Assembly (NCBI GenBank): GCA_021650915.1
Contig: CP091279.1
Span: 1,410,001-1,442,000 of the forward strand
Direction: 5' to 3'
Source of the DNA: Candidatus Brocadia sp.
Lineage (GTDB): Bacteria; Planctomycetota; Brocadiia; Brocadiales; Brocadiaceae
DNA length: 32,000 nt
Part shown: in pieces, positions 14,762-32,000 of the stretch
Numbering within the stretch: position 1 is the first letter of the stretch
Layout: each line of letters starts with the position of its first letter
Position numbers and translations under genes: made by a program
The notes under the pieces: model-generated
The model's database searches: none
Told to the model about the DNA's origin: nothing
What the model saw: the letters and a program-made list of their open reading frames with translations, nothing else

Positions 14762-14813
14762 ACCCTTTGTTATCCTTCAGTCATTAATTTTATGAAGTTT
14801 ACCAACATCTCTG

Positions 14814-15278
14814 TCACTGTGCTGATCGCCTAACACGAAAGAGTGGCTGGCCAAATTCTACTGCCTCGCCGTCATTGACATAAATATCCACAATTTCGCC
14901 TACCATTTCAGCTTTCACTTCGTTCATGATCTTCATTGCTTCAATGATACACACAACGGTCTCTTCATTCACAACATCTCCCACATTCGCACACGGCTCC
15001 GCACCAGGGGCATTGGCCCGATAAAATGTACCCACCATCGGAGAAATTATCTCTTTCGTATTTTCACCCTCTTTCGACAACACAGGCACCTGATGTCTTT
15101 GCTCTAACGACGAAGTATAGAGAGGGGGGACTGCAACTGCGGAAGCAACGGTATGCGTATAACCAGCATCACTCTTTTTCAGCCTTATTTTTGTGACATC
15201 TTCCTGAATTTCAATTTCAGACAACTCGTTTTCATTCATAATGGAAATTAATTGCTTTACCTTGTCTATAATACTCAT
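14814..15278 (-). CDS. accB: Biotin carboxyl carrier protein of acetyl-CoA carboxylase
   Basis: 154 aa with the biotinyl-lysine motif IEAMKIMNEV near the C-terminus. It lies immediately upstream of accC. Confidence 0.92.
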   Translation of the reverse strand: MSIIDKVKQLISIMNENELSEIEIQEDVTKIRLKKSDAGYTHTVASAVAVPPLYTSSLEQRHQVPVLSKEGENTKEIISPMVGTFYRANAPGAEPCANVGDVVNEETVVCIIEAMKIMNEVKAEMVGEIVDIYVNDGEAVEFGQPLFRVRRSAQ

Positions 15279-15492
15279 GTTTCATTCCTTAATATGGAGT
15301 TTGTTTTTAATCATTAAACAGGAAAGCCAGCAAAATCTTCTGTTAATCCGTATGAGGAATACCTTTGTTTAAGAACTACGCGGAGAAATAGGAAACGAAA
15401 TTCTGGTGGAACAAAATGAAGGGCTGCTGTATAGATTCTTTTTTACTATACTTTGTGTAACAGGCAACGGCATGTTCTCTTTATTAATTTAT

Positions 15493-16563
15493 TTATCCTG
15501 CTATTTCTTCAAGCCTTTTTGGTATGCGACTTAAAACTTCACAACCGCTGGGAGTAACCAACACCATGTCCTCGATACGTATGCCACCCCAACCTGGGAT
15601 ATAAATTCCAGGTTCTACGGTAAATACCATATTCTCTTCTAATACTTCCTTGCTCCTGCTGTTAATGACAGGCCCCTCATGAACCTCAAGCCCAATGCCA
15701 TGCCCTAATCCGTGACCAAAGCACTTTGCGAATCCTTTTTTTTCAATATAACTTCTTGCCGCACTATCGATTTCTTTTGCCTTTCGGCCAGGTTTTATGC
15801 TGTCAATAGCAAAACCTTGTGCATCTAACACTATCTGATATATCTTCTTATAATCGGGGGATATTTTATCTATGAACCGAACCCTTGTCAAGTCGGAATT
15901 ATAAAACTGAAAACACGCACCCCAATCAATTAAAATTGCTTCTTTTTCCCCGATAATTCTCTCTGTCGGGTGCGCATGCGGCAGCGAAGCCCGTTGTCCC
16001 GTAGCGCAGATTATTTCAAAGGCGCTTCTTTCGCCACCATGATTTCTTATTTCAAGCTCCAGAATATCCGCAATTTTCTTTTCTGATAAGCCAACCCCTA
16101 TTTTCTTTTCCACACGGTTATATGCCTTCTCAGCAATAGAAATAGCCGTCCGAATCTTCTCTAACTCCTGATCTGTTTTTCGTTTCCGATATTCCTCAAC
16201 AATTCCCTTCGTTGGTATAAGATGTATCCCACCATAGCTGCCTAAAATTTCATGGTACTGGTGAACGGTAAGAAAGAGCGCTTCGATAGAAAGCTCTTTG
16301 ATCTTAAGACGTTTGAGTTTCGCACTAATTGTCCTCTCCAACGAAACCTTTTTTTCAACAACGGTAATCCACGGGATATCTTTCTGGGCTTGCTCGACGT
16401 ATCGAAAGTCCGTGAACAAGTAATCCCTCTCCCGCGTGATTAAAAGAATGCTCTCACTACCTGTAAATTTTGTAATATAATGAATATTTACCGCATTTGT
16501 GACTAAGAATCCATCTACATGCTCTTCTGTTAACGTCTGCTTTATTTTCTTCAAACAATTCAT
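15493..16563 (-). CDS. M24-family Xaa-Pro aminopeptidase/dipeptidase
   Basis: 356 aa with a creatinase-like N-domain and the metal-ligand motifs HGLGHGIGLEVHE and VEPGIY...GGIRIED. Confidence 0.88.
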   Translation of the reverse strand: MNCLKKIKQTLTEEHVDGFLVTNAVNIHYITKFTGSESILLITRERDYLFTDFRYVEQAQKDIPWITVVEKKVSLERTISAKLKRLKIKELSIEALFLTVHQYHEILGSYGGIHLIPTKGIVEEYRKRKTDQELEKIRTAISIAEKAYNRVEKKIGVGLSEKKIADILELEIRNHGGERSAFEIICATGQRASLPHAHPTERIIGEKEAILIDWGACFQFYNSDLTRVRFIDKISPDYKKIYQIVLDAQGFAIDSIKPGRKAKEIDSAARSYIEKKGFAKCFGHGLGHGIGLEVHEGPVINSRSKEVLEENMVFTVEPGIYIPGWGGIRIEDMVLVTPSGCEVLSRIPKRLEEIAG

Positions 16564-16600
16564 AGCAAATCATCTTGCTTGCAAAAAGCATCCTGTTATA

Positions 16601-17947
16601 TTACTTCTTTTCTTTTCTAATCTTTTCTATTAACGTATCGATAAACACCTTAAATTGCTTGTCAGTATCAATTTGTTCTTTCACCTTCTTTATAGCAAAC
16701 ATAACGGTGGAGTGTTTCTTACTGGCAAAATAATTCCCGATTTGCTGGTAAGACCAGTTGAGGAGCGTCTTGATCAGGTACATGCATATTTGCCGTGGAA
16801 AGGAGATAGATTTTATTTTTTTGCTCGAATGAAGCTCATTGCGTGAGATGTTGAAATAACTTAAAATCGCCGCTTCAATCTCATTAATCTTAACGATTTT
16901 CCCTTCCGCTAAGAAAAATTCTCCCAGAACGTCACTGGCCAAATGGATATCTATATTTTTCTCGTTAAACTTGGCATGCGCCGAGAGTGTTGTCAACGCG
17001 CTTTCAACTTCCCTTACATTATCTTCAAATCGCTCTGCAATAAACTCCAGTACTTCTTCAGGAAAATGCACATCAAAACTTGCGGCCTTTGACCTCAAAA
17101 TCAAAAGCCTTGTCGCATAATCAGGCTTATCTATCTTGACAATCATCCCTGACATAAACCGGCTCGCAAGCGTTTCTTTCAGCTGACCAATCATCTTTGG
17201 ATGCGCATCGCTTGCAAAGATAATTCTTTTTGACAACTCATACAATGCATTGAAGGTATGTAAAAATTCTTCCTGAACTCCCTGCTTATTGGAAAGGAAA
17301 TGTACATCGTCAATAAGAAATAGATCCACATTCCTGAATTTTTGCCGAAACGCTTCCATCTTTCCCTTTTGCAATGAATAAATAAATTCATTTGTCCATT
17401 TCTCAGCCGGCATGTAAATGCTATTGACATTTTGTTCTTCCCGAATCCGATTCCAAACGCCTTGAAGAATATGCGTTTTTCCAACACCAACGGGACCATG
17501 AATAAAAAGAGGATTAAATGCGGGGTATTTGTCCTTCATAATTTCAAGGGACGCCGTATATGCCATTCTATTATTAGGACCTACTACAAAATCCTCCAGC
17601 TTCAGGTATCTATTCAATGATGAAACGGCTTTATTACCTTCCGACTTCCTTTCAACAGGAGAATTATCAACCGGCAGAATTTGGTCACCTTTACCGTTTT
17701 GTGCTATGGAAAATCTTATATTCAGATCCTTACTATTTACAAGCTTTCCGATACCATCTCTCAAGATATTCGAAAAATTCTCCTGCAACCATACCTGGGT
17801 AAATACATTCGGCACGGCAATGTTTACACAGTTATCATTGAAAGATTCAAGCCGGGTATTTTTAAACCACAGATTGAACCGCAAAGGACCCACTCTTTCC
17901 CGAATATCCTGAAGCACATCATCCCAGACCTTTGTGTAAAACTCCAT
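16601..17947 (-). CDS. dnaA: Chromosomal replication initiator protein DnaA
   Basis: 448 aa. Walker A is GPVGVGKTHIL and Walker B is LIDDVHFL. Domain IV has the HTH region (SFPRQICMYLIKTLLNWSYQQIGNYFASKKHSTVMFAIKKV). An AT-rich region lies upstream. Confidence 0.95.
   Translation of the reverse strand: MEFYTKVWDDVLQDIRERVGPLRFNLWFKNTRLESFNDNCVNIAVPNVFTQVWLQENFSNILRDGIGKLVNSKDLNIRFSIAQNGKGDQILPVDNSPVERKSEGNKAVSSLNRYLKLEDFVVGPNNRMAYTASLEIMKDKYPAFNPLFIHGPVGVGKTHILQGVWNRIREEQNVNSIYMPAEKWTNEFIYSLQKGKMEAFRQKFRNVDLFLIDDVHFLSNKQGVQEEFLHTFNALYELSKRIIFASDAHPKMIGQLKETLASRFMSGMIVKIDKPDYATRLLILRSKAASFDVHFPEEVLEFIAERFEDNVREVESALTTLSAHAKFNEKNIDIHLASDVLGEFFLAEGKIVKINEIEAAILSYFNISRNELHSSKKIKSISFPRQICMYLIKTLLNWSYQQIGNYFASKKHSTVMFAIKKVKEQIDTDKQFKVFIDTLIEKIRKEKK
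16735..17216. repeat. Copy 1 (inside intact dnaA) of a 482-bp direct repeat
   Basis: Manual alignment to 18875..19356 at a constant offset of 2140 shows no indels and 12 substitutions. Confidence 0.9.
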
Positions 17948-17974
17948 TACTCGTGGTATCCTTTTACGCTATGA

Positions 17975-18590
17975 AGAAGTTCGTTTTGGAAATGAAATAA
18001 GATTCATCGTTGAAGGAAGCCGATATTAGCAGAAGGATTTGTAGCTGTCAAAATAAAAAGATATCGCTGTCCTTAAAATACTTTTGGCATAACTACGTTT
18101 TTCACCTAACATCTTTATAAATAAAACAATTAAAAAAAATATAATTCCTACAATAAATTTACAAATAAATTTATTTAAACAATATTCACAACTGGACCTT
18201 TTGCTATAAAAAATATTTTGTTTTATAATATCATAGTAAATTGAAACTTAGAAACACCTCTCTTTTTTACTGCTTTTTTATTGCATTATTTTATTAGATA
18301 TAACCAAACCCTTCTTTTAAAAACTCTTTTATACCATAAAAATAAATTGTTGATAAGTTGTGGATTATTAGTTAAAAAAAAGAAGAGTTGTCAGATATAA
18401 TATATTAACAATAAAGAACATACATCATCTGCAATTTGCTTTAAATAATTTCCATCCTAATGTTAACAACAACAGAATTGTTTACTATCGTCATTAAAAT
18501 GCAGGCAATATTTTCAGCTACCATTTAAGAAGGGCTACGCTTTCAAAAAATGCCGATTGATTTCAAACTATTGTCAATAAAATTTACGAT
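17975..18590. other. AT-rich putative oriC / dnaA promoter region
   Basis: This is a very AT-rich ORF-free tract directly upstream of dnaA. DnaA-box-like sequences are TGTGGATTA (18359..18367, 1 mismatch) and ATATTCACA (18182..18190, 2 mismatches). Long A/T runs around 18110..18180 could serve as an unwinding element. Confidence 0.4.
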
Positions 18591-18874
18591 AAGCACTGTG
18601 GCGCGGAATGGAGTTTTCCTGCTTACTCGCCGCGCCTGATTGTGCGCTGTGCGCAGACAAACGTTTCTCCGTTCTTGCTCATCCTGTCAGTTCAAGAGTA
18701 TCTATCACCCCTCCTTTCCATGCCTTTTTGTCACGAAAATACGGCGTTGCCGGCATTCTGTATTCAACCCGGATCCCAAGATAGTAAGAAGTTAAAAGTA
18801 ACCCCTTAAGGGGAACCAGTAGCAATACCCTTTTAGGACTAATCACGTCACCCGTTATGCGGGTGGCTACTGAC
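18591..18874. other. GC-richer, hairpin-dense non-coding segment of unknown nature at the repeat junction
   Basis: There is a stem GGCGCGG (18600..18606) / CCGCGCC (18630..18636), a tandem TGTGCGC x2 (18641..18654), a palindrome CCCCTTAAGGGG (18802..18813), and a hairpin CACCCG (18849..18854) / CGGGTG (18860..18865). No credible ORF is present. Confidence 0.4.
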
Positions 18875-19356
18875 TCCCGATTTGCTGGTAAGATCAGTTG
18901 AGGAGCGTCTTGATCAGGTACATGCATATTTGCCGTGGAAAGGAGATAGATTTTATTTTTTTGCTCGAATGAAGCTCATTGCGTGAGATGTTGAAATAAC
19001 TTAAAATCGCCGCTTCAATCTCATTAATCTTAACGATTTTCCCTTCCGCTAAGAAAAATTCTCCCAGAACGTCACTGGCCAAATGGATATCTATATTTTT
19101 CTCGTTAAACTTGGCACACGCCGAGAGTGTTGTCAGCGTGCTTTCAACTTCCCTTACATTATCTTCAAATCGCTCTGCAATAAACTCCAGTACTTCTTCA
19201 GGAAAATGCACATCAAAACTTGCGGCCTTTGACCTCAAAATTAAAAGTCTTGTTGCATAATCAGGCTTATCTATCTTGACAATCATTCCTGACATAACCC
19301 GGCTCGCAAGCGTTTCTTTCAACTGACCAATCACCTTTGGATGCGCATCGCTTGCA
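18875..19356 (-). pseudogene. dnaA: Internal dnaA fragment (end of AAA+ domain III to first part of domain IV), copy 2 of the direct repeat
   Basis: It differs from 16735..17216 at 12 of 482 positions. It lacks both the 5' and 3' ends of the gene. The TGG of the WSYQQ codon is changed to TGA (18894..18896), and the internal Met codon is changed to GTG. Confidence 0.85.
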
Positions 19357-19471
19357 TGTCAATATTTATGTTAATTATTCCTTGGCTCACGCTGTACTTT
19401 TTGTCAGACTAAAGAAAATTTGTTAATACCATTGTTGGTAACCCAACACAACAAAGAAAGGAACCGCAAGA

Positions 19472-20164
19472 ATGAAGCATTTACTCAAAGCATTAAGGCA
19501 CCGCATTAGGTCATTGACGCAAACAAAAGAGGAGCGTCGTCATATGCTGGTAGGACCTGCACACCTCTGGAAGATGAAACGTGACTTTCAGATCCGATTC
19601 TTGAAAGATATGGGACTAAAGCCTGAGTACTATCTTTTCGAAATCGGCTGCGGGACTCTCAGAGGAGGAATACCGCTGATTGATTACCTTCAGGATGGCC
19701 ATTACTTTGGAGATGAAGTAAGGGCAACGGTACTTGACGAGGGACAAAAGGAATTAAGGGAAGCGAGGTTAGAAGGAAAAAATCCAACGTTCCTGCTGTC
19801 TCCAGATATTTCACAGCTTACTGTTGACAGGAAGTTCGATTATATCTGGGCGTTTTCGGTATTGATTCACATGAGTGACAAGATACTCAATGATACTCTT
19901 GCTTTCGTGAGCAGCCACTTGTCAAAAGAAGGAGCTTTCTATGCCAACGTAAATATCGGCGAAAGAAAAGAAGGCCATTGGCAGGGGTTCCCCCTTGTTG
20001 CAAGGACCTTTGATTTTTACAGTCAGGCGTGCACCACGAATGGTCTAGTAGTCTCTGATATCGGACCTTTGAAAAAATTCGGGCATGTCTCAAACGTAGA
20101 ACCACAAGACAACCAAAGAATGCTTAGAATAACTAAGAATGGCCCAACAAGGTGCTGCGCCTGA
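19472..20164 (+). CDS. Class I SAM-dependent methyltransferase
   Basis: 230 aa with motif I FEIGCGTLRGG and motif II-like DYIWAFSVLIHM. The substrate is not inferable. Confidence 0.65.
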   Translation: MKHLLKALRHRIRSLTQTKEERRHMLVGPAHLWKMKRDFQIRFLKDMGLKPEYYLFEIGCGTLRGGIPLIDYLQDGHYFGDEVRATVLDEGQKELREARLEGKNPTFLLSPDISQLTVDRKFDYIWAFSVLIHMSDKILNDTLAFVSSHLSKEGAFYANVNIGERKEGHWQGFPLVARTFDFYSQACTTNGLVVSDIGPLKKFGHVSNVEPQDNQRMLRITKNGPTRCCA

Positions 20165-20211
20165 CCGCTATTCCGCTGCGCTCCATAGCGGTTGGTGAGC
20201 GCTGACTTTTT
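20154..20211 (+). terminator. Imperfect GC-rich hairpin plus T5 run, likely terminator of the methyltransferase gene
   Basis: The core stem is ACCGCTAT (20164..20171) / ATAGCGGT (20185..20192), extended by GCGC/GCGC pairing and followed by TTTTT (20207..20211). Confidence 0.5.
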
Positions 20212-20337
20212 GACCTTATTAAGAATTCCTTCTTTTAGCGTTTACCATTAGTTGAAGGTGATTCCTTTGCAATTACTGTATTCCCCTGCTCAGACGCAAC
20301 CCTATCACGCCGAGTATAATCAGTCCAGTCGAAGTCA

Positions 20338-20432
20338 GAATCCGCCCGCTCCACGGGTGGATTCTTTATTTACGGATTAATCGTAATCCGCACCAGTCAT
20401 CCATCCGGATCAGGGCTTTTTTTGAAATTCTC
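20338..20432 (+). other. Cluster of hairpins sharing an AATCCG/CGGATT core, ending in a T7 run
   Basis: Hairpin 1 is GAATCCGCCCG (20338..20348) / CGGGTGGATTC (20354..20364) followed by TTTATTT. Hairpin 2 is CGGATTA (20373..20379) / TAATCCG (20384..20390). A palindrome ATCCGGAT (20403..20410) is followed by CAGGGCTTTTTTT. Confidence 0.45.
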
Positions 20433-21187
20433 TTGTACCATGAATCCCTTCGTTCCAGGTAAGTTTCTACCCTAGAAAATTGTTGGTACTATGCTGTATC
20501 CAATTGTTTGTCACAAACCTGTGGCTCTTCAGTCAACTCCGGGAGAAACGTTTGGGGCCAATTCTTTTAAAATAACACCATCGTTTCGATCAAATTTACG
20601 CCCTGACCATGCTATCAGCTTGAACCTTTTGTGAGATGCCTGTTGTCTTTAAAAATTGTTTAGCTGACAATGAGGTATTTTGTTAAAAACACTTGAATTT
20701 CAGGATTCTTTTTGTATCATACTGCCAATAGTTTATTGCGCTGGATAGCTCATGAATGGTTACTTTGTGCGCTTTTTTATGTTACCGCGGGGCAAATAGA
20801 ATAACTGTCTTTTTCTTAACTTAGCGCCACAAAAAATTCTCGTTTTGCACACGTTGCGCGTTACGTTACGAAAGGCCTTTCATTCTGTCTTTTCTCTTGT
20901 ATACGGCAGGGAATGCATCAGCATTGTGCATCATCAGGTGGCAAGCAGTTAAAATTTCATTTCACCTGTACCCGCGCATCTTGCTTCCTTTGTAAGCATA
21001 CTCCATGGTCTGTTGAATAGCAGGTTTTACAACGGAACCATAGTTTGTTTTTCACCGGAGCAAGTATTCCCCTTATACCTGGCGCAGCACAGCAGCAACC
21101 AAATTTCCTTTATGAAAGCGGGCGAATTGCTTCGGAAAAGGCCCTTGCAATGACACCGACCATGCACTGTGATAGCACACGACACGT

Positions 21188-21240
21188 TGTCATTGCGAGC
21201 ACATTCGATTTGCTCAGGATAAACTCCGCGAAGCAATCTT
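21188..21240. repeat. Degenerate copy of a CATTGCGAGC...CGAAGCAATC-type palindromic intergenic repeat
   Basis: An imperfect inverted repeat is centred on ATTGC/GCAAT. It generates the spurious peptides VIAS...SAKQS (plus strand) and ARNDN (minus strand) that I associate with a widespread intergenic repeat family. Confidence 0.35.
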
Positions 21241-21421
21241 TCGCTCATAAAAAACGGTACCACCTGAAAAAGAGGTTGTGAAAAAACTTACAAAAATGAA
21301 GTCTTTATACAGGAATACTATAAAGCGGAGGATTTTGCAATATTTGTTGTGCCGTACTGCCTTATCCTCACACAAAAACGCATCAAGGTATTGAGTCGCT
21401 TTTTTCTAATCCATAGAAGGT

Positions 21422-24058
21422 ATGTCTGATAAAATTGAACATGCTATCGAACACACAAGACATTTGTTGCCCGATCAGGGTCCGCTGCCATTCTTTGTTC
21501 ACCACAACACCATTCATCACTTTGAATCTTACGACTTTTTCGAAGGCGTTAAACAGGCAGGGCGTACGTATGGCGCTAAGTCGTTTATGTCCGAAGAGGA
21601 GTTCCTCCTGGCGTTTCAACAAGGACGCATCACGGCGTCTGTTTTGTACAAAGAGATCAAAGAATATATAAGGAATCACCATCTCAATATCCCGCCGGAC
21701 ATTCTCTTTAATCTCATGACGGAGAAACCCCGTGTGCGAAGAGAGCCAGGCGCCAGGATTCTGCAGTTTGTAAATGACACTGCATATCAGCGCCCGGGTT
21801 ATTACAAAGAAGCGATTCAAATCACCCACAATCAGAATATTGATGAACTGATGGAACCGGTTCTCTTTCGTTTTTTCCCCTCGTATTTCGACCTTGGCCT
21901 GGCCTATTGGCTTATGCCGCACCGGGAGAAAGGGTTGTGGTATTGTTTCTGTGAAAGCTACTCAAAGAGCGGTTTCTTCAGGCCGAAATTTCTCAAGACA
22001 CTGAACCGGATCGTCTCCGAGGCAAAACGATATCCCTACGATGAGGCTACCACACTCTTACTGAAACGTCTGGCCATTCCCGATGAACACCTGGACGACT
22101 ACCTGTTCAGCATTCTGTATCGTTACCGGGGGTGGACTGGCACCATTAAATCACTGGAAGAGGTGCCGGACTGGATTCCAAGTCACGATATTAAAGCCTC
22201 ATTGAAAGAGGTTGTCCCGGTGATTCTCGTTGTTGAGCTTGCGGCGATTGAGTCCATATGTGAGCTTATAAGTCTGAAGATTCCCGTCTATAAACCAATG
22301 CCATTATATGATCCCTATTTTATCGCTTCTCTGGTAAACGCCCTGGGCATCAAACATGGCGACACATACCCCAGAGAGGTCACACATTTTACCGGTGAAA
22401 ATCTCCTGGAGATATGGCAGCGCTCCTATGAAGACACCTTTTACGATCAATTTCTTACAACATACCGCAAGGGAGCTATCGAGGAAAAGCCGGAATACAA
22501 GCTTCCGAATTATCAGGTCTTTTGCTGCCTGGATGAACGCGAGGAATCTTTCCGCAGACATTTGGAACGAATAGATTCCGGCGCAGAGACCCTGGGGACG
22601 GCCGGACATTTCAGCCTCGATATGAAATTTAAGGCAGCGCCGGATAAGCACTACCGCAAGATGTGCCCACATCCTTTAGTAACACCGTCGGTACAAGTCT
22701 ACGAAGAAGCGGCGAAGCTTGAGGACTCGATGCCTAAAAAATTGCAGCTTTACGGGGAGGCGCAATGGGCAATTACGCAATCATCCAAGACCCTTTTTGG
22801 GGGCTTTGTCCACACGATTTTCAGCGGAATTCTGGATTTCCCGCCGTTTATCCTGGACGTGCTCTCACCAAAGTATAGCTCAAAGCTGCGACGGTATCTG
22901 GCGGCGCATAAATCCAGGACGCGGTTGGTCTACAAAAAAGAAACCCATGAAAATGAAAAAGGATGGGATCTGCAAGGGCGGATCGCCCGCGCCACGGGCA
23001 TTCTCAAAGGCGCCGGGTTTTCGGACAACTTTTCACCTTATGTATTCACGCTGGGTCATGGTTCGAGTAGTCTCAACAATCCTCATGAAGCCGCCCACGA
23101 TTGTGGGGCGTGCGCCGGAGGGCGCGGCGCACCGAACGCGCGCCTTTTTGCAGCCATTTGCAACGAACCTGAAGTTCGCGCAGGGCTTGCAAAAAATGGC
23201 GTCATCATACCGGATTCGACCCGGTTCATTGGTGGATATCATAACACCTGCAGCGACGAGGTGCTATTTTTCGATCTCCCCAACCCTATCGAGCCGCGTC
23301 TGCAAACGTATCTTGATACGATTCGCCGTGCGGCAGCATTGGATGCGAAAGAGCGCTGCAGGCGCTTTGACGCAGTCAGAACGGATTTATCAGAAAAAGG
23401 ATTCGCCGATTATGCGCAGGGACGCTCGATGGATATTACCCAGCCACGCCCGGAATATGGCCACTGCACCAATGCACTGGCTATTGTGGGCCCACGGCAT
23501 CTGACGCGGAATCTTTTTTTAGACAGGCGCGTATTTTTGACCTCTTATAATTATACGGTAGATCCTGAAGGGAAATTCCTGAGAAACATCCTCGGCGCAG
23601 TTGGCCCCGTATGCGCGGGAATAAACCTTGAGTACTATTTCAGCTTTATTGACAACGAGCACTACGGCTGCGGCACCAAATTGCCTCACAACATTACCTC
23701 ACTGGTAGGGGTAATGAACGGACATTACAGCGACCTTCAGTTGGGATTGCCATGGCAGATGGTCGAACTCCACGAGCCTATCCGGTTGATTCTGCTTGTC
23801 TGCTGCAAGGTCGAAACAATGGAAACCATCCTCGGTGAGGCATTCGGCTATACCGGCCAACCCGGACACTTTCAGTGTCTGGTGAAACACAACTGGATTA
23901 CCCTCGCAATCCACGATCAGGAGCAGGAAAAGCTGTTTTTATGGAAAGAAGGACGTTTTGTGCCATTCGAAGAGACGGCGGATGTACCGAAATACAAGGG
24001 CGACGACCAACGGTTTTTCCTCGAACAGGGTCATCTTTTATTTGGCCAAATTATCTAG
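21422..24058 (+). CDS. dabA: DabA (DUF2309-family, beta-carbonic-anhydrase-like subunit of a DAB inorganic carbon uptake module)
   Basis: 878 aa with GAAGG upstream of the ATG. Candidate Zn-site residues are C369/D371 (FCCLDERE) and H546/C561 (GHGSSSLNNPHEAAHDCGACAG). Their internal spacings (2 and 15) are the same as in the characterised DabA as I recall it. Confidence 0.88.
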   Translation: MSDKIEHAIEHTRHLLPDQGPLPFFVHHNTIHHFESYDFFEGVKQAGRTYGAKSFMSEEEFLLAFQQGRITASVLYKEIKEYIRNHHLNIPPDILFNLMTEKPRVRREPGARILQFVNDTAYQRPGYYKEAIQITHNQNIDELMEPVLFRFFPSYFDLGLAYWLMPHREKGLWYCFCESYSKSGFFRPKFLKTLNRIVSEAKRYPYDEATTLLLKRLAIPDEHLDDYLFSILYRYRGWTGTIKSLEEVPDWIPSHDIKASLKEVVPVILVVELAAIESICELISLKIPVYKPMPLYDPYFIASLVNALGIKHGDTYPREVTHFTGENLLEIWQRSYEDTFYDQFLTTYRKGAIEEKPEYKLPNYQVFCCLDEREESFRRHLERIDSGAETLGTAGHFSLDMKFKAAPDKHYRKMCPHPLVTPSVQVYEEAAKLEDSMPKKLQLYGEAQWAITQSSKTLFGGFVHTIFSGILDFPPFILDVLSPKYSSKLRRYLAAHKSRTRLVYKKETHENEKGWDLQGRIARATGILKGAGFSDNFSPYVFTLGHGSSSLNNPHEAAHDCGACAGGRGAPNARLFAAICNEPEVRAGLAKNGVIIPDSTRFIGGYHNTCSDEVLFFDLPNPIEPRLQTYLDTIRRAAALDAKERCRRFDAVRTDLSEKGFADYAQGRSMDITQPRPEYGHCTNALAIVGPRHLTRNLFLDRRVFLTSYNYTVDPEGKFLRNILGAVGPVCAGINLEYYFSFIDNEHYGCGTKLPHNITSLVGVMNGHYSDLQLGLPWQMVELHEPIRLILLVCCKVETMETILGEAFGYTGQPGHFQCLVKHNWITLAIHDQEQEKLFLWKEGRFVPFEETADVPKYKGDDQRFFLEQGHLLFGQII

Positions 24059-24067
24059 GAGTACACA

Positions 24068-26086
24068 GTGGACGAAAAGCATCTGATTACCTATCTGGCG
24101 CATTACTTTGTACTATTTCCCCTCCTCAAGGTGCTCGCAATTAACATCCAGTATTTTTCCCGTAAGCATAAAATCGAAGAACACCTGATCCGCAGATTGG
24201 TTGCCTGGGGAGGCATTAGTGATATCGTACATGTTGTAGTTGCCTTGAGTATCCTGGGATTTAAAACGGCTACCGTTCACATAGAGTCCTTCTGCCTGAT
24301 TGGTTGGCCATTCATTGTGGATTGGAACCTCTATACGGCTACGTTTCTGGCCTTCACGACAATACTTGTCACCATCATTGGCCGGTTTTCCCTCTTTTAC
24401 CTCCACCGCGATGTCTATTATCACAAGTTCTTTTCCCTTTACTTTGTCTTTCAACTGGCGCTGGGGCTTCTCGTTCTCAGTTCCAGCACCTCCTATTTGT
24501 TCATGGGCTGGGAACTTCTGGGCATTTCGTCAGTGCTTCTTATCGCGTTCTATGAGCATCGTCCCAATCCGCTTAAAAATGGCATGCGGGTGATGTTCAT
24601 TTATGAATTCGGAGATATCTTTCTTTTTGCACTAACCGTGATATTGCTTTATTTCCATATTGAGGACATCAATGACATGGCATTGATTCAAAAGCATGGC
24701 TGCGAGTGGGCAAAGTTTTTATTAATTGTGGCATGCTTCTTTAAGTCCGGTATTTTTCCATGGATCTGGATACCACGGGCTATGGAAGGGCCTACGCCTT
24801 CAAGCGCAATTTTCTACGGCTCGCTGTCAACGCATATGCCAATCCTGCTTCTCCTCCGCATGTGGCCCCGTGAATGGTCACTTCCCGCCTGTTGGCCTGA
24901 AGTGTGGACAATTACCCATCCGGCAAATGCCATCGCCCTTGCGATTGCCATTTGTGTTTTTTCCGCCTTTGTCACAACCCATATGAGCCGGCAGCATTCC
25001 GACGCCAAGAACACCGTTGCATATGCCATTACAACACAGCTAGCCATTATTTACATCGAGATTTTCCTGGGATTTTACACCCTTGCTTTAATCCATGTGA
25101 TATCCCACGGGATATATCGTACCTATGAGTACATGCGCACCCCATCGCTGTTCCACCTATACCACACCATGGAAACGCGACGCCCCAGGGTAACGGGCAC
25201 CGGAAAGCACTTTGAATCCATCCTTCCCGAACGGTTCAGAAAGTGGCTTTACGCGCTCACGATCAACGAGTTCGGTTTTTTGTCGCGATCCTTCGACCTT
25301 ATTGACCAGTTTCTTGGTCTGAAATGCACAAGTCTTGACAAAAAAGCGGCACGGCGATTCGCCATTATAATATCCGCGGTCTGGATAGTCTTCAGCATCG
25401 TGATGTTTGTCCTCAACAAGCGGCTTTTCAACGTTCAATATACCAGCGATGGCAGCGGAAATACCGTCATGTCATTCATCATCAACTGGAATTATTTCAG
25501 TATCAACGAAGAGTTAATACTTGTTCTTGCGGTAGGTTTCTGCGCGCTCTCCTTTTACCATATCCGCCGGATAGCTATGTACTTTATAACCCTTGCCTGC
25601 TCCGCCTGGTCGGCTGGTTTAGTCCAGGCATTAGAGTTGATAAAAAATACGGATGTGAAACACCTGTGGTCTTGTGTGTCCGTGATTACCCTGGCCATTG
25701 TCTTTGTGGGACTTGCCTGCTACTCGGCATACGCTTCTTCACATAGTGACAGGAAACAGGCAAGTTTTACCGCACAACTCTATCGTACGCCCCTGTCAAA
25801 CGCACTGCTGTTTCTCCTTGGCCTAACCATTGTCGGTATGCCGGGATTAGGCACCTTTTTGGGCTGGGAACACCTTGTCCATTATGCTGCACCCATTGCC
25901 CCTCATACGGTAGTGAAGGGATTTTTTATCCTGAAACTGAACACGATTCTGGTCGTCCTCTTTTATTTCAGTAACTTCCTCGGCTACCCCGATCACAAAA
26001 CACAGGCGCTGCATCACTACAAACGAGATACCCTGCACTTACGCTGGGCGCAGAAGCACACGGATGTGTATCCCTTTCCTTCATAA
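24068..26086 (+). CDS. dabB: DabB (NuoL/NdhF/MrpA-like proton-conducting membrane subunit)
   Basis: 672 aa, polytopic. The GTG start lies 9 nt after the dabA stop, with AGGAG at 24057..24061. It carries the antiporter-like motifs GWELLGISSVLLIAF and PRAMEGPTPSSAIFYGSL. Confidence 0.85.
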   Translation: MDEKHLITYLAHYFVLFPLLKVLAINIQYFSRKHKIEEHLIRRLVAWGGISDIVHVVVALSILGFKTATVHIESFCLIGWPFIVDWNLYTATFLAFTTILVTIIGRFSLFYLHRDVYYHKFFSLYFVFQLALGLLVLSSSTSYLFMGWELLGISSVLLIAFYEHRPNPLKNGMRVMFIYEFGDIFLFALTVILLYFHIEDINDMALIQKHGCEWAKFLLIVACFFKSGIFPWIWIPRAMEGPTPSSAIFYGSLSTHMPILLLLRMWPREWSLPACWPEVWTITHPANAIALAIAICVFSAFVTTHMSRQHSDAKNTVAYAITTQLAIIYIEIFLGFYTLALIHVISHGIYRTYEYMRTPSLFHLYHTMETRRPRVTGTGKHFESILPERFRKWLYALTINEFGFLSRSFDLIDQFLGLKCTSLDKKAARRFAIIISAVWIVFSIVMFVLNKRLFNVQYTSDGSGNTVMSFIINWNYFSINEELILVLAVGFCALSFYHIRRIAMYFITLACSAWSAGLVQALELIKNTDVKHLWSCVSVITLAIVFVGLACYSAYASSHSDRKQASFTAQLYRTPLSNALLFLLGLTIVGMPGLGTFLGWEHLVHYAAPIAPHTVVKGFFILKLNTILVVLFYFSNFLGYPDHKTQALHHYKRDTLHLRWAQKHTDVYPFPS

Positions 26087-26149
26087 GGAATCTGCCTGCG
26101 GACAAAGGGTAGAAATGAACGTATTGCCATAAGACATCATTTCGTTTTT

Positions 26150-27217
26150 TTACCACTTTTTCTTTTTGAAGAAATAGACCATGGTGGCAGTTACGCATGC
26201 CATTATGAGCAAAACCATCGGATATCCCCAGCGCCATTCAAGCTCCGGCAGATATTTGAAATTCATCCCATAAATGCCGGCAATAAAGGTAAGTGGCATA
26301 AATATGGTGGCAATCATGGTAAGCACCTTTATGACGGCGTTTACTCTGTTGCTAATGCTTGAAAGATAAATCTCGAGCATTCCCGCAATCATTTCCCGAA
26401 AGGTTTCAAGGGTATCAATGATATGAATGGTGTGATCATAGATATCCCTTAAATAAATTCTGGTAGATTCCCTCATCAGTAAAGATCCCCCTCGTTCCAG
26501 GCCACCAATTACCTCCCGCAATGGCCATACGGATCTGCGCAATAAAATCATGTTCCTTTTCAGATGATAGATGGTGCGCAAAACCTTAGGAGTCGGGTTG
26601 CTGACCAACTCATCCTCCAGCAATTCAATCTTTTCTCCCAGGGTTTCCATGATAATGAAGTAGTTGTCAACAATTGCGTCGAGCAGGCAATAGGCAAGAT
26701 AATCAGCGCCCATTTTCCTTATGCGGCCTTTATTCGTTCTGACCCGATCCATGATCCCACGAAAAACGTCACCCGCCCGCTCCTGGAATGAAATGACAAA
26801 ATTTGACCCTAAAATCAAGCTTACCTGTTCAGAGATAATTTCACCGTCCTTGCCGTTACAATGCAACATTTTGAGAACGACATAATAGTATGCATCAAAA
26901 TCCTCACACTTGGGACGCTGATCAGTATTCATGATATCCTCCACAATGAGTGGATGCAGCCCAAAACCTTCACCAAGTTTTCCTAATATCTCACCCTCGT
27001 GAATCCCATCGATGTTGATCCACGCCACGGTGGACCGGTTCTTGTCCTTAAAGGGAAAACATTCTTCAACTGACCTCGCCGTCTGTTCATGAAAATGCGC
27101 TTCATCGTACTCGATGATGGCAATCTTTACTTCTTCAGTCTTTTTCTCCCCAATATGAATCAGCGAGCCTGGCGGAAGACCGGCTTTCCGCGATCTTTTT
27201 TTGATGAGTTTTACCAT
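26150..27217 (-). CDS. corA: CorA-family magnesium/cobalt transporter
   Basis: The C-terminal signature is YGMNF with two TM helices. The ORF extends to a GTG at 27286, but the ATG at 27217 (MVKLIKKRSRK) is the more plausible start. Confidence 0.9.
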   Translation of the reverse strand: MVKLIKKRSRKAGLPPGSLIHIGEKKTEEVKIAIIEYDEAHFHEQTARSVEECFPFKDKNRSTVAWINIDGIHEGEILGKLGEGFGLHPLIVEDIMNTDQRPKCEDFDAYYYVVLKMLHCNGKDGEIISEQVSLILGSNFVISFQERAGDVFRGIMDRVRTNKGRIRKMGADYLAYCLLDAIVDNYFIIMETLGEKIELLEDELVSNPTPKVLRTIYHLKRNMILLRRSVWPLREVIGGLERGGSLLMRESTRIYLRDIYDHTIHIIDTLETFREMIAGMLEIYLSSISNRVNAVIKVLTMIATIFMPLTFIAGIYGMNFKYLPELEWRWGYPMVLLIMACVTATMVYFFKKKKW

Positions 27218-27337
27218 AGGAGGCACCTTCTTAAAAACGGTATTGATATTGCCTGAACGCACGGGAAAAGACAAAATCCGAGGCACAAAATCCCGATGTC
27301 TGCCCTGCCGGGGTTTTCAATTCTGACAGGGTTAGTT

Positions 27338-27492
27338 TTATTGTAACACTTTAGTTTTTTGAAAAAGTAGGGGCGAAGCATTTGCCTGCTTGGGGTGTGA
27401 ATACATTTATATCAATTTATGGCAAATGCTTCGCCCTTACACCGTGCGGTAACATTGTTATTATTGTAATTTTTCAAAAACTAAAGTGTTAC
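27338..27492. repeat. Composite long palindrome (nested inverted repeats) between DUF488 gene and corA
   Basis: The outer arms are 27343..27366 and 27470..27492 (complementary except for one base of run length). The inner arms are 27367..27386 and 27421..27440 (19 of 20 complementary, GTAGGGGCGAAGCATTTGCC). A 34-nt central loop and a 29-nt asymmetric insert are present. Confidence 0.7.
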
Positions 27493-27579
27493 GTTTTATT
27501 TATGTGCGTCCGAAAAATATCAAACGCACCCCGGACGATGCTGGATACGGAGTGATGATAACCAGCTTACCAGCAAAAC

Positions 27580-28158
27580 TCAACTTTCTTTTCCGGTTCC
27601 AGGATCGATCTGAGCTGCATCCGGGGGATACGTAATGCGGATGCCACGTACCACAGCCCATGGGGTAAGCTTATGGGGTTGCCTCTTTTTTTCACTCATG
27701 ATGTGTTCAACCTGAATATTTCTGACCAATAACGCGTCGGCAATGAGGGAGCGATGGCAGCGCCAAGGCAGAGACTCAGCGCACATCAATGCAATACGCT
27801 CGCACCCCGCCAATGCAATCATGGTTTCTAAGTTTTTCTCAAATTCCGGTGTTTGCATATAGTCGGCAAAGCCTCTGAACGACGCATTTCGCCATCCGAT
27901 GTTTGGTGAATCGGGACGCGGGTGGCGAAGGCCTCCAAGTCCTGCCATGTGAGTATACCGTATACCAACTGCTTTCAGACTATCTGGCAGTGTTTCGCGA
28001 TTGAATTGCGGATTGCGTCTGGAGCGCGGCACCGTACGCACATCCACGACATGTTTCACTTCGTGAGCACACAAGAGACGAATGAAAACTTCCAGGGTAT
28101 GTATGGAATGACCTATGGTTAGGATAACAGCAGGTTTTTCTGAAGTACCTTTTCTCAT
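27580..28158 (-). CDS. DUF488-family protein
   Basis: The family pattern is TIGHS...VVDVRTVPRSRRNPQFNRETL...GIRYTHMAGLGG. The ORF reaches 28248, but the ATG at 28158 (AAGGA upstream) removes the overlap with the upstream gene. Confidence 0.8.
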   Translation of the reverse strand: MRKGTSEKPAVILTIGHSIHTLEVFIRLLCAHEVKHVVDVRTVPRSRRNPQFNRETLPDSLKAVGIRYTHMAGLGGLRHPRPDSPNIGWRNASFRGFADYMQTPEFEKNLETMIALAGCERIALMCAESLPWRCHRSLIADALLVRNIQVEHIMSEKKRQPHKLTPWAVVRGIRITYPPDAAQIDPGTGKES

Positions 28159-28217
28159 GGAAAGTATCCTTGCCGGGACAAGCCTTAAGCTGATGCATCC
28201 GACTGATAAACAAAGAT

Positions 28218-28769
28218 TCAGTAAATGGTTTCCTCTATCATTAAACACGGCGAGGACTTATTCAGGGAATATGGGCATGCCGTGGGACAGTTGTCCGGCT
28301 GAAGCCATTGGTGACCGCTTTTGCACCGGCATATTTTCAGTCTGCTGCGCATGAGCTGATTTGGCCAGTGCTTAAAAAAAGGGAAAAGGGCATTGCCAAT
28401 GGAAGTAAATGATTCCTGTCGTTCATTGACATTCTTTGCGTTTTTCAACGACTCTGCCCCTTCCAAAACGAGTTGCATCATGTGTTGGCCTGGTCCCTCT
28501 GGCTCAGTCTGAACACCCAACGTTGCGGCATCAATGAGATTTTGAGCCAGGCTGGAGATCTCGCCTGTCCCGCCTTTTACCATGTAACTATAGATATATT
28601 GATACCCCATCAGGATTGTCTGGAAATGGATATAAGTCTGCTTTTTAATAGTAATTACCGTGTCGGTATTATGGCCATGACCCTCGCGTGCAGACACAAA
28701 AGTCGGATAATGAGACACTAAAAAGATAATAAAAAGAATAACACTTTTCACGCCGCGATATTTTATCAC
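28218..28769 (-). CDS. Secreted DUF3347-like protein (tentative)
   Basis: The ORF extends to 28826. The GTG at 28769 has AAGGAG 6 nt upstream and gives a signal peptide (IKYRGVKSVILFIIFLVSHYPTFVSA). The mature part begins REGHGHN. The helical region and C-terminal pattern (C.C....WL......CPY......C...EE.I) loosely resemble DUF3347 as I recall it. Confidence 0.45.
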   Translation of the reverse strand: MIKYRGVKSVILFIIFLVSHYPTFVSAREGHGHNTDTVITIKKQTYIHFQTILMGYQYIYSYMVKGGTGEISSLAQNLIDAATLGVQTEPEGPGQHMMQLVLEGAESLKNAKNVNERQESFTSIGNALFPFFKHWPNQLMRSRLKICRCKSGHQWLQPDNCPTACPYSLNKSSPCLMIEETIY

Positions 28770-28881
28770 ATCAAACTCCTTTATTGTAATGGTGCAAAGG
28801 TATCGCTTCTTTCTCCTCGAAGGCATAACACCTTCCCTTCAACGATTACTCAACGGGCAACCGTTTGTATGTTTTGCGCAC

Positions 28882-29553
28882 TCAAGGCTTGACATCACCT
28901 GCTGGCTCCTCCTGCTTGTCCTGCTCACCCTCTTTTTTCAGGATTTCATCCATGATGCCATCCAGTTTCTCTATGCCCTTCTTAATTTCCGCTGCACAAC
29001 GTTCCAATGCCTCATCCATTTTTTTCGATGCCACATCGCCCAGCTTCTTTATCTTTTCCTCATATTCAGGCATTTTTTGTTTCATCTCTCCCAGGGCTTC
29101 ATTCACACGCTCTGACAATTTTCCACCCAGATCCCGTAAATTTTTCGTAATCTCGGAAAAGGAATTATCTTCCCGTATCGTCTCTTTTGTTTGAACGTAA
29201 TCTACCCGCCATTCTCCATCCTCTTTCTTCAGAATCGTTTGGAACGGAAGAGAAGTTTCCGCGTCATGTCCCGATAACCGAGCGGTGGTGTCTATGGTCG
29301 CAAGATCACCGTCGATAACGATCTTGCCAAACGTCACCACCGCATTCTTGAATCGTTCACCGGAGGGGTCAATCAGGGCACGGGTTTTTGCCGTAGCATA
29401 TTTCCTGCAACTTTCTACATCCTGAACTTTCATGGCATTCCAAAAGTATTGTGCCACCTCCTGCGGGGATTTATTGCCGCGGCATCCGGACGTAAAGATC
29501 AGGGACAACGTAATCAAATAAACACAAACCCAACGCAATCGTCCTGAAATCAT
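28882..29553 (-). CDS. Lipoprotein with NTF2-like (DUF4878-like) domain and acidic/lysine-rich coiled-coil tail
   Basis: Signal peptide with a lipobox-like LIFTSGC. The N-domain pattern is YFWNAMK...GDLATIDT...EDGEWRVDY. Confidence 0.7.
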   Translation of the reverse strand: MISGRLRWVCVYLITLSLIFTSGCRGNKSPQEVAQYFWNAMKVQDVESCRKYATAKTRALIDPSGERFKNAVVTFGKIVIDGDLATIDTTARLSGHDAETSLPFQTILKKEDGEWRVDYVQTKETIREDNSFSEITKNLRDLGGKLSERVNEALGEMKQKMPEYEEKIKKLGDVASKKMDEALERCAAEIKKGIEKLDGIMDEILKKEGEQDKQEEPAGDVKP

Positions 29554-29836
29554 TTTCTCTCCTCCTCAAAATCGATCCTGTAGACGGCTTTCTATCGAAA
29601 TATCCAATATAAAATATAGGATTTTTATGATACTTTCTCAAGTTAAATATGAAATGGTTATGGGACTGGAATTGCGGGCTGAGGATTCATTCATTGATCT
29701 TGGAAGAGAAAGAACCCCTTCTCTCATCTCCGTGCAATATCACAAATTTCTTCTTGAGTGTACGTTTAAATGCGCTATACTTGCATTAGTTTATTGGCAT
29801 ATATTCGCATCAAAATCACTCTCCCGGATCCCAACT

Positions 29837-31558
29837 ATGGCGGCTAGGTCAATATCGATAAAGACGAGGCCAGGTCTGATTACCCTTCTTATCATCATTT
29901 CATCTCTCGCTTTTTTTGAGGGTGACCCTGCATGCGGTCAAACAGAAAACCGGAAACCTCATGTAGCCAAAGAATCAATTGCAGCGGAAGGGGTAACAAC
30001 ACTCGACACCCTCGCTGGCGTTGTTCAATTAATCACCGAATTAAGGGACGAAATCGAAAGCAAGGAAAAGAATCTCGATGAAACCCAAGCGCGTGAAGAG
30101 AGATTGGAAATTAAGAAGGACATTGATAAACTCAATGAACGGCTGGAATCCCTGAAAACAAATTTTGAGGAGATTGCCACGGGTTTGGATCTGGAGGCAT
30201 TTTATCAAAAACCACAAAAACGTTTTGACTGGAAGGAAGAAATCCAGACCCTCGTAGGGCCGATTGTAAATGACTTAAAAAATATGACCGCTCGCCCCCG
30301 GTTAATTGAAAATTTGCGGACACAAGTGGCCTACTACGAAAAGCAAATTTCCCTGGTAAAAGAGGCGCTGGAAAACATCCAGACGATTGCTGTCCAGGTC
30401 AAAGATGAAGCCTTGAAAAATCAACTCATCGGCCTGAAAAATGACTGGACTAGCAAAGGGAGGCAGATTTCAAGCCAGCTTACCATCGCAAAATATCAAT
30501 TGACCGACAAATTGGGCGAAAGAAAGACATTCCTTGAATCGAGTAAAAATATCGTGAGGGTATTTTTCAAGAGCCGGGGGAGAAATTTTGTCTTATCCGT
30601 ACTCGCATTCCTGTTTGTATTCTTCTTGCTTCGTTATATTCACCGGCATCTTTACAAAGGGAGCGCCATCCACAGGACGTTGGCAGGCTCATTCTACATC
30701 CGTCTTGCAGAAGTGTTGTACCAGGTACTCACCTTTGTTGGCGCCACCGGGGCGCTGCTGATCGTATTGTACGTTTGTGGCGACTGGGTACTTTTGGGTA
30801 TAGCGTTCATTTTTATCTTAGGCCTCATCTGGACGGCAAAACAGACCCTTCCCCGTTTCTACGAGCAGGGCACACTCCTCTTAAACCTTGGGCCAGTCAA
30901 GGAAAATGAACGGGTAATATACAACGGCCTTCCCTGGAAGGTGGTCTCACTACACTTCTATACGCAGCTGGTGAATCCGGAATTGAAGGGAGGAATGATC
31001 AGGCTTCCCCTGAATGAACTCAAGGATATCAGGTCACGCCCCTATCATCACGATGAACCCTGGTTTCCGTGCAAAGAAAAGGACTGGGTTATCCTTAATG
31101 ACGGAACTATGGGGAACGTGACGATACAGACTCCTGAAATTGTGCAGCTTGCTGTTGCCGGAGGAAGTTTTAAAACGTATCCCACGGCGGTATTTTTAAA
31201 CCAGAACCCCCTCAACCTCTCCAGGAACTTTAGTGTCAGGGTTACTTTTGGCATTGCATACCAACATCAGGCAATTGGTATTACCGAAGTCCCTCAAAAA
31301 CTGAAAGAGGCAGTAAACGCAGGACTTATCAGGGAAGGATATCAGGGTGATCTCATGAATCTGAATGTGGAATTTAAAGAAGCGGCCGATTCATCCCTGG
31401 ACTACCTGATTTTTGCCGAGTTCTCAGGACGAGTCGCAAAAGACTATTATAAACTTTCCCGAATCATTCAAAAGATCGCATTGGAAGCATCCAATACAAA
31501 CGGATGGGAAATTCCTTTCACGACATACACGGTTCATACGGTTCCGTCTCACCAATAG
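29837..31558 (+). CDS. MscS-family mechanosensitive channel-like protein with long N-terminal coiled-coil periplasmic domain
   Basis: The ORF starts at 29627, but the ATG at 29837 (MAARSISIKTRPGLITLLIIISSLAFF) gives a signal/anchor sequence. The coiled-coil region is followed by 3 TM helices, then a beta-domain pattern (VIYNGLPWKVVSLHFYTQLVNP...IRLPLNEL) like the MscS pore-proximal domain. Confidence 0.55.
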   Translation: MAARSISIKTRPGLITLLIIISSLAFFEGDPACGQTENRKPHVAKESIAAEGVTTLDTLAGVVQLITELRDEIESKEKNLDETQAREERLEIKKDIDKLNERLESLKTNFEEIATGLDLEAFYQKPQKRFDWKEEIQTLVGPIVNDLKNMTARPRLIENLRTQVAYYEKQISLVKEALENIQTIAVQVKDEALKNQLIGLKNDWTSKGRQISSQLTIAKYQLTDKLGERKTFLESSKNIVRVFFKSRGRNFVLSVLAFLFVFFLLRYIHRHLYKGSAIHRTLAGSFYIRLAEVLYQVLTFVGATGALLIVLYVCGDWVLLGIAFIFILGLIWTAKQTLPRFYEQGTLLLNLGPVKENERVIYNGLPWKVVSLHFYTQLVNPELKGGMIRLPLNELKDIRSRPYHHDEPWFPCKEKDWVILNDGTMGNVTIQTPEIVQLAVAGGSFKTYPTAVFLNQNPLNLSRNFSVRVTFGIAYQHQAIGITEVPQKLKEAVNAGLIREGYQGDLMNLNVEFKEAADSSLDYLIFAEFSGRVAKDYYKLSRIIQKIALEASNTNGWEIPFTTYTVHTVPSHQ

Positions 31559-31626
31559 TCTTCTGAGAACAACGCCATCCGCTTGACGGGATTATAATGG
31601 CCATGAGCAAACGATCCTTTTAGGCA

Positions 31627-32000
31627 TTACGAATGCCCTCTTAAAACGACCCGCGCCGGACTGCCGTCACCGTCCTTTATCTTCAATGGCAACGCGATCA
31701 GTTCGTACTCCCCCGGTTTTACCTCATTCAAATCAAGCCCTTCAATGATAATGATACCCTTGTTCAAAAGTATGTGGTGGACGTCTGCATGCACACGGTC
31801 AAACTTATCGACCGACAGATAATCAATCCCGACCAATTTCACGTTATGCATCGCTAAATATGCGGCAGCCGCCTGGGTCAGATAGACAAAATCCTCGATA
31901 AATGCCGAGTGTTTCCAATAGGTAGAGTTAATCGTCTTAAAAATAACCCGTTCGCACTTTTCTATTTCTAATGATTTTAAATTCTCCGCATCAATTTTTT
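31627..32000 (-). CDS. Cyclase-family protein (arylformamidase/kynurenine formamidase-like), 5' end beyond window
   Basis: The reading frame stays open from 32000 down to the stop at 31627. The translation ...FKTINSTYWKHSAFIEDFVYLTQAAAAYLAMHNVKLVGIDYLSVD...HHILLNKGIIIIEGLDL...PLKIKDGDGSPARVVL matches the cyclase (PF04199-like) C-terminal pattern. Confidence 0.7.
   Translation of the reverse strand, partial: KIDAENLKSLEIEKCERVIFKTINSTYWKHSAFIEDFVYLTQAAAAYLAMHNVKLVGIDYLSVDKFDRVHADVHHILLNKGIIIIEGLDLNEVKPGEYELIALPLKIKDGDGSPARVVLRGHS

Follow-up and report, generated by a model that had tools for sequence, protein, structure and literature searches.

A probable pseudogene fragment of dnaA separated from its parent gene by the putative replication origin in the Candidatus Brocadia fulgida lineage

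The window analysed here is a stretch of 32,000 nucleotides from Candidatus Brocadia sp. (GenBank assembly GCA_021650915.1, contig CP091279.1, positions 1,410,001 to 1,442,000). Near its middle lie the intact resident dnaA gene, an AT-rich intergenic region upstream of that gene that resembles a replication origin (oriC), and, on the far side of this region, a second copy of an internal piece of dnaA, which sits close to the edge of a lineage-specific block of genes (Table 1). The product of the resident gene contains the Pfam domains DnaA_N (residues 6-63), Bac_DnaA, which is the ATPase (111-270), and Bac_DnaA_C (354-422); it is 100% identical in 9 public contigs and 69-92% identical to the DnaA proteins of 32 Brocadiaceae loci. 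The internal copy is probably a non-functional partial paralogue of this gene, which would have arisen within the lineage through a local duplication by illegitimate recombination and has since decayed.

Pairwise alignment of the fragment with its parent segment extends over 482 columns with 0 gaps and 12 mismatches (470/482 nucleotides identical), and a repeat finder reports the same pair in direct orientation at a constant spacing of 2140. These results confirm the preliminary description of the locus, which had reported a gapless 482-bp copy at an offset of 2140, with 12 substitutions and a TGG-to-TGA change at 18894..18896. The fragment shows 96% identity to DnaA residues 245-405 (tblastn), and gapped local alignment detects no homology beyond the 482 bp, both flanks scoring no better than shuffled sequences. 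The repeat ends 134 nucleotides short of the dnaA stop codon, and the last 44 codons are not part of the copy. Neither terminal inverted repeats nor target-site duplications were found around the fragment. An 8-bp TGTCAATA repeat at 18574 and 19357 was considered as a candidate and dropped, since the homology of the relatives runs through its first copy.

In terms of domain content, the fragment starts ~26 residues before the end of the ATPase core, continues through the lid, and stops within Bac_DnaA_C, of whose 69 profile positions it covers 1-43; there is also a weak, sub-threshold match to Hda_lid (E = 0.009). Residues 1-244 and 406-448 are missing, and it contains no N-terminus, no Walker motifs, and a DNA-binding domain without its last third; the AAA and IstB matches of DnaA, which hold the Walker motifs, span residues 147-244, and the fragment begins at 245. 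The Pfam positions thus agree with the earlier statement that the copy has neither end of the gene and spans the end of the AAA+ domain and the first part of the DNA-binding domain. Strictly between the two copies lie dnaA codons 1-244 (~54% of the gene), the AT-rich region, and an unrelated segment of 280 bp. The direct repeats hence do bracket the origin-like region, as had been noted, together with little more than half of dnaA instead of the 5' two-thirds given previously.

Table 1. Features of the dnaA locus and the adjoining block, in window coordinates
Feature	Position	Strand	Remarks
Resident intact dnaA	16601..17947	-	448 amino acids; open reading frame (ORF) list and Pfam
Parent copy of the repeat, within dnaA	16735..17216	-	codons 245-405; invariant among the strains compared
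AT-rich oriC-like intergenic region	17957..18595		GC 24-25%; conserved in relatives
Visible part of the ~16.7-kb lineage-specific block	18597..32000		extends ~3.3 kb past the window
Unique segment of 280 bp, origin-proximal edge of the block	18597..18874		GC ~47%
Putative dnaA pseudogene fragment	18875..19356	-	equivalent to DnaA residues 245-405; in L001, L002, L003, L009, L044
Premature stop in the fragment, W398 TGG to TGA	18894..18896	-	derived: G in 13/13 outgroup dnaA genes
Run of 222 bp identical to the resident gene, putative gene-conversion tract	18895..19116		11:1 split of differences
Unique spacer of 83 bp, fragment to methyltransferase cassette	19357..19439		no similarity to dnaA flanks or relatives
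Class I S-adenosylmethionine (SAM) methyltransferase gene, first gene of the block	19472..20164	+	230 amino acids; Pfam Methyltransf_12, Methyltransf_25
dabA-dabB module	21399..26058	+	Pfam DabA, Proton_antipo_M

The structure recurs in independent contigs, which were found by an exact-protein look-up of DnaA. The gene, the AT-rich region, and the fragment lie on one continuous contig in GCA_019186885, GCA_029760155, GCA_000987375, and a JGI metagenome contig; over 3.1-4.5 kb, their identity to the window is 99.8-99.98%, and all of them show the same 12 differences between the copies. A Logan contig (L044) corresponds to window positions 18895-21257; it reaches from the fragment across the methyltransferase gene and breaks off at the last variant site. 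Two of the loci, L001 and L002, have a further two substitutions present only in the fragment, namely D-to-N and S-to-P, their resident segment being unchanged. The alternative that a dnaA piece of a strain variant was misjoined beside the origin during assembly or binning draws on the source, an uncultured enrichment organism, on a divergence of 2.5% between the copies that is typical of co-existing strains, and on the Logan contigs, which break at or near the repeat. Such a chimeric join would neither recur with identical junctions nor evolve along with the strain background. Yet the junctions and the 12 differences are the same in three NCBI metagenome-assembled genomes (MAGs) and the JGI contig, the right-hand junction is found again in the Logan contig, both junctions enter unique sequence within continuous contigs, and the strain-specific variants of the fragment follow the strain background; moreover, a functional strain allele would not carry the stop and missense changes described below. 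An artefact is accordingly the sort of explanation to which we attach almost no probability, and the fragment is a genuine part of the chromosome. The earlier argument that the substitutions speak against an assembly collapse points the same way as the shared junctions and the strain-specific mutations.

A scan of the genome collection with DnaA returned no second dnaA match in the 32 other Brocadiaceae dnaA loci, most of which extend up to 6 kb upstream of the gene. The identity of the fragment to the resident gene is 97.5%, against 87% or less to the dnaA of every other species, so that it is a paralogue from within the Ca. Brocadia fulgida lineage, to which it is restricted. By the same comparisons, it postdates the separation from the nearest sequenced species and predates the divergence of the sampled strains. 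Exact-protein look-ups with the ORF of the fragment and with the methyltransferase gave only one Logan contig, so that no strain without the fragment turned up. Literature searches returned no account of this locus, nor of any dnaA pseudogene fragment at an origin.

Truncated dnaA sequences were also encountered outside this lineage. The scan returned, apart from the 32 loci, two Kuenenia contig ends with only the 3' end of dnaA. These contigs of Ca. Kuenenia sp. Bin_40 (L042 1-235 and L043 1-235) both start with the last 235 nucleotides of the gene, are 98.7% identical there, and then diverge, one running into pepP, the canonical neighbour, and the other into a glutamate-5-kinase-like gene; the pair may represent a further case of partial dnaA duplication or a mixture of strains. 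In Brocadia sp. 21I_052.bin.35 (L040), the contig ends within dnaA at residue 319, in the region equivalent to the fragment, which may reflect low coverage (5x) or hint at a repeat there too.

The direction of the 12 differences was determined against 13 outgroup dnaA genes. Seven of them are unambiguously derived in the fragment, namely M252V, F264V, A317T, H324C (two adjacent nucleotides), W398*, and one synonymous change; M252V also converts an ATG to GTG. The other five are synonymous and fall at sites that vary among the outgroups, where the fragment has T, A, A, A, and A at window-equivalent positions 17182, 17147, 17114, 17108, and 17102. When the two strain-specific changes are included, the branch leading to the fragment carries 8 non-synonymous or nonsense changes against 1 synonymous change, a ratio based on small numbers and leaving 5 changes unpolarised; the ratio fits the neutral expectation of 79% non-synonymous. 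The fragment is also 4-8 differences further than the resident copy from every outgroup. In its mutation pattern, the 482-bp sequence behaves as a non-functional pseudogene fragment of the resident dnaA.

The differences are unevenly placed along the repeat. In the coding orientation, 11 of the 12 fall in the 5' 240 nucleotides (window 19117-19356), and only the stop lies in the remaining 242. Divergence between species is even across the two halves (e.g. 26 vs 29 and 27 vs 31). Simulation of random placement gives a probability of ~0.007 for an identical run of at least 222 nucleotides, and the 11:1 split has P = 0.006. Because the differences are clustered while the between-species divergence is even, the simplest reading, albeit from small numbers, is that the identical run arose through gene conversion of the fragment by the resident gene, as the pattern suggests.

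The AT-rich region between the copies is a putative oriC. It is 66-77% identical to the region upstream of dnaA in the relatives, with the similarity ending at ~18595 (blastn). A 36-bp block within it (18340-18375), which carries two adjacent near-consensus DnaA-box 9-mers at 18348-18367, is conserved at 85-93% in distant genera as well. Enrichment of DnaA boxes in the region is not significant, with no strong cluster. The minus strand has a candidate promoter for dnaA at 18051-18023. Gene orientation switches at this region, and the GC skew shifts there from ~-0.2 to ~-0.05 without a clean sign flip.

Beyond the AT-rich region, the window departs from its relatives. In these, the order is a citramalate-synthase-like gene, a small zinc-ribbon gene, a family-9 glycosyltransferase gene, the deoxyhypusine synthase (DHS) gene, 500-1150 bp that include the AT-rich region, and dnaA. 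Of the 26 loci that extend far enough upstream, 21 have the DHS gene upstream of dnaA, in 20 cases at 500-1150 bp. In the present lineage, a block of ~16.7 kb has been inserted between the two. Its far end can be traced through contig L061 (LAQJ01000056), the DHS protein of which is named by NCBI as that of Candidatus Brocadia fulgida: positions 4521-9102 are 100% identical to window 32000-27419 over 4582 bp, and the DHS gene at 117-1205 would correspond to window-equivalent ~35316-36404 on the minus strand, the same orientation as in the relatives. The fragment sits 280 bp inside the origin-proximal edge of this block. More generally, the oriC/DHS junction is a variable site in the Brocadiaceae, as two other Brocadia described below also illustrate.

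The 280-bp segment that separates the fragment from the AT-rich region shows no similarity to the relatives (blastn, tblastx) or to the dnaA flanks; it contains no tRNA (ARAGORN), no frame open across it, and no match to the phage and plasmid collections, and its fold z-scores (-0.8 and -1.6) are unremarkable. Rfam gave no match at gathering thresholds in the whole window, and at E<=5 on 17900-19500 it gave only a spurious snoRNA. On the other side of the fragment, the methyltransferase was not found at the dnaA loci of relatives. Its closest homologue (77% amino acid and 79% nucleotide identity) is on a non-syntenic JGI metagenome contig (L045), where it is the only gene shared and the similarity starts from 19440. 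The methyltransferase cassette (19440-20140) is likely to have been acquired horizontally. It is followed by ~1.25 kb (20165-21398) with no ORF of more than 80 amino acids and no Rfam match, which is unlike both the relatives and the upstream region of dabA in B. pituitae. The 280-bp, 83/115-bp, and 20165-21421 segments have no counterpart in the 32 relatives' loci or in 16 metagenome methyltransferase loci.

The dabA-dabB module is 83.7% identical at the nucleotide level to that of Ca. B. pituitae (AP021856.1, 2.37-2.39 Mb), which lies ~1.5 Mb from the dnaA of that genome and has different flanks. Further along the block there are, in order, corA, a DUF488 gene, three hypothetical genes, and then genes for a cyclase, an anti-sigma factor, and an extracytoplasmic function (ECF) sigma factor. 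On its gene content, the block is a patchwork of unrelated modules rather than a recognisable mobile element.

This composition bears on the possibility that the repeat is an att-type target duplication, made by an integrative element or genomic island with its integration site in dnaA. The direct repetition of a gene segment and the position of the fragment at the edge of a 16.7-kb lineage-specific block would be in keeping with such an event. Nevertheless, no integrase, recombinase, or transposase was found among the 8 block ORFs of the window (Pfam) or in the precomputed Pfam calls on L061, which cover the remainder of the block, and there is no tRNA. Elements of this type restore the 3' end of their target, but the duplicated piece is internal and stops 44 codons short. 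It is also oriC and the 5' part of dnaA that lie between the repeats, and not the island, the DHS-side end of which contains no dnaA or oriC sequence; and the block holds native anammox genes relocated from elsewhere. An att-type origin is therefore no more probable than an artefact, and the earlier suggestion that the fragment might be the scar of an element once integrated at dnaA finds no support in the missing integrase, transposase, and tRNA, the internal position of the piece, and the location of the origin itself between the repeats.

Several further observations were made in this region. A 155-bp palindromic repeat resembling a miniature inverted-repeat transposable element (MITE) is located at 27340-27493, between corA and the DUF488 gene; its terminal inverted arms occupy 27343-27365 and 27470-27492. 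Another copy, with 97% identity, is found at L061 1424-1578, ~220 bp past the DHS stop and near the far edge of the block, and the repeat also occurs at L062 2868-3022 and L063 2995-3139. Brocadia sp. WS118 (L014 4205-4960) has an unrelated 251-aa methyltransferase-like ORF between DHS and oriC. In B. sapporoensis (L011 4164-5204), DHS has been lost, and the C-terminus of the glycosyltransferase ORF carries a motif like that of DHS (...ELKKHVK). The GC skew is -0.15 to -0.33 in 1-18500 and ~-0.03 to -0.13 in 19000-32000, with no positive swing; the weak skew on the right side would fit a right flank recently assembled from other chromosomal positions. The strongest negative skew of the window (-0.26 to -0.33) is in 3000-9000, where the GC content is 0.49-0.55 compared with ~0.40 in the neighbouring genes.

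The favoured explanation of the fragment can be set out as follows. Illegitimate recombination would have copied an internal piece of dnaA to a site 2.1 kb away in the same orientation, after the lineage had split from its nearest sequenced relative and before the sampled strains diverged. Two routes can be envisaged. In the first, a tandem duplication of 2140 bp (16735-18874) would create an 18874|16735 joint and leave an intact dnaA, a second copy truncated at its 3' end, and a second oriC, following which most of the second unit would be deleted; selection would plausibly favour this loss, since a supernumerary origin and a truncated initiator are probably harmful. In the second, a template switch during replication would copy the 482 bp in a single step. 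By either route, the copy would have landed at the oriC-proximal edge of a region under restructuring. The fragment would then have decayed neutrally through missense changes and a stop, with the resident gene remaining under purifying selection, and part of it was probably overwritten at least once by the resident gene via conversion. We favour a local origin in view of the short distance to the source (2.1 kb), the shared orientation, and the illegitimate nature of both junctions. Were the copies to recombine reciprocally, oriC and the 5' half of dnaA should be deleted, presumably with lethal effect, so that only conversion or duplication products could persist; the fragment's own persistence may be a consequence of this.

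Certain observations weigh against this explanation. Direct reading of the fragment junctions gives no convincing microhomology, and there is no positive signature or intermediate that would separate a tandem duplication with deletion from a template switch or from capture of a sister-strain sequence. The assemblies showing the structure appear, from their record names (unverified), to be short-read or 454 based. The absence of expression is judged only from consensus scans and the mutation pattern. The pairwise Nei-Gojobori ratio of non-synonymous to synonymous divergence (dN/dS), with the stop codon excluded, is 0.22, which is below pure neutrality, and the probability of 6 or fewer of 12 changes being non-synonymous is 0.026. 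Either synonymous changes have accrued on the resident branch too, or the fragment was once part of a functional gene, as an import would predict. Finally, of the 5 synonymous sites that are ambiguous, 4 have the same nucleotide in the fragment as in L013 and L011, two of the closest outgroups.

The last of these points and the low dN/dS also count in favour of import, according to which a dnaA piece of a diverged sister strain (~95% identity) was captured beside oriC through illegitimate or homology-facilitated recombination, then truncated or decayed, and its 3' half later converted. Six synonymous differences within the 240 nucleotides of the 5' half and the apparently horizontal acquisition of the adjoining methyltransferase would also be in keeping with it, and at the four sites mentioned it is the outgroups and not the resident gene that the fragment resembles. 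Against this, no donor-like allele was found, and the landing of a foreign piece 2.1 kb from its homologue in the same orientation would be a coincidence, yet is predicted by local duplication. Conversion would still be required for the identical 222-bp run, and the matches to the outgroups occur at two-fold and four-fold degenerate A/G sites, where homoplasy easily arises given a GC-to-AT mutation bias. Import is consequently an unlikely alternative, although the most credible of those considered. The preliminary description had left the choice between an old rearrangement and an import from a related strain; a past rearrangement is borne out, and an import is the less probable of the two.

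A role for the fragment in the present-day cell could take several forms, namely a peptide from its ORF (the DnaA lid with a partial domain IV), an antisense or regulatory RNA, or repeats retained as a substrate for reversible amplification of the oriC unit. With 146 open codons (18894-19334), the ORF is called by gene callers, public MAGs listing it as a 133- or 146-aa "DnaA C-terminal" gene; the fragment has been kept in all sampled strains despite the deletion bias of bacteria, and the 222-bp identical run would mean that the copies still interact. The start codon of the ORF, however, is the derived ATG-to-GTG; no Shine-Dalgarno sequence precedes it on direct reading, and a consensus scan found no sigma-70-like promoter reading into the fragment. 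Eight of the nine polarised or strain-specific changes are non-synonymous or nonsense, the peptide would have neither the ATP-binding motifs nor the recognition end of the helix-turn-helix domain, and there is no DnaA-box-like 9-mer within the fragment. A functional element is hence improbable, and the fragment most likely does nothing today. The proposal that a truncated DnaA is expressed from it is likewise unlikely in view of the promoter-like and Shine-Dalgarno sites that are missing, the mostly non-synonymous polarised changes, and the premature stop. Unequal exchange could amplify the 2140-bp unit; that the repeat pair, held partly identical through conversion, permits reversible amplification of this unit, with oriC, the dnaA promoter, and the 5' part of the gene, through unequal sister-chromatid exchange, or that an RNA or lid-domain-IV peptide of the fragment tunes initiation in a slow-growing anammox bacterium such as this, is a slightly more remote prospect still.

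The practical consequences are modest. The fragment is annotated as a gene in public MAGs and should be flagged as a pseudogene, and the repeat probably contributes to contig breaks near the origin. The locus also provides a small natural example of origin-flanking direct repeats in which reciprocal recombination should be lethal and only putative conversion is seen. It has no bearing on any major open question.

Among known systems, integrative elements and genomic islands duplicate the 3' end of their target gene at att sites. The present repeat resembles these in being a direct repeat of part of a chromosomal gene beside lineage-specific DNA, and differs in that the dnaA piece is internal, no integrase was found, and the repeats flank the origin rather than the inserted block. 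Truncated or paralogous members of the DnaA family include Hda, which has the AAA+ domain only, and the second dnaA copies of some bacteria. The fragment shares homology with these, but it has no Walker A and B motifs and no N-terminal domain, carries a premature stop, and shows no clear sign of purifying selection. Nearby direct repeats that differ by substitutions only also recall the template repeat/variable repeat pairs of diversity-generating retroelements; this candidate was rejected, as the substitution spectrum is mixed, with an A in one copy at only 6 of the 12 sites, no reverse transcriptase is present among the scanned ORFs, and the target is a housekeeping gene. The closest likeness is to gene-fragment pseudogenes produced by illegitimate recombination or by duplication and deletion, with which the fragment shares truncation at both ends, a functional parent in the same genome, a stop, mainly non-synonymous derived changes, restriction to one lineage, and location in a rearranged region. 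Unlike the usual members of this class, its parent is an essential initiator gene, and the two copies bracket the putative origin, so that deletion between the repeats, the usual fate of such pairs, should be lethal and the cell would tolerate only conversion or amplification. The element thus belongs to a familiar kind, the gene-fragment pseudogene at a rearrangement boundary, of which its origin-bracketing position and the hint of conversion make it a mildly unusual representative.

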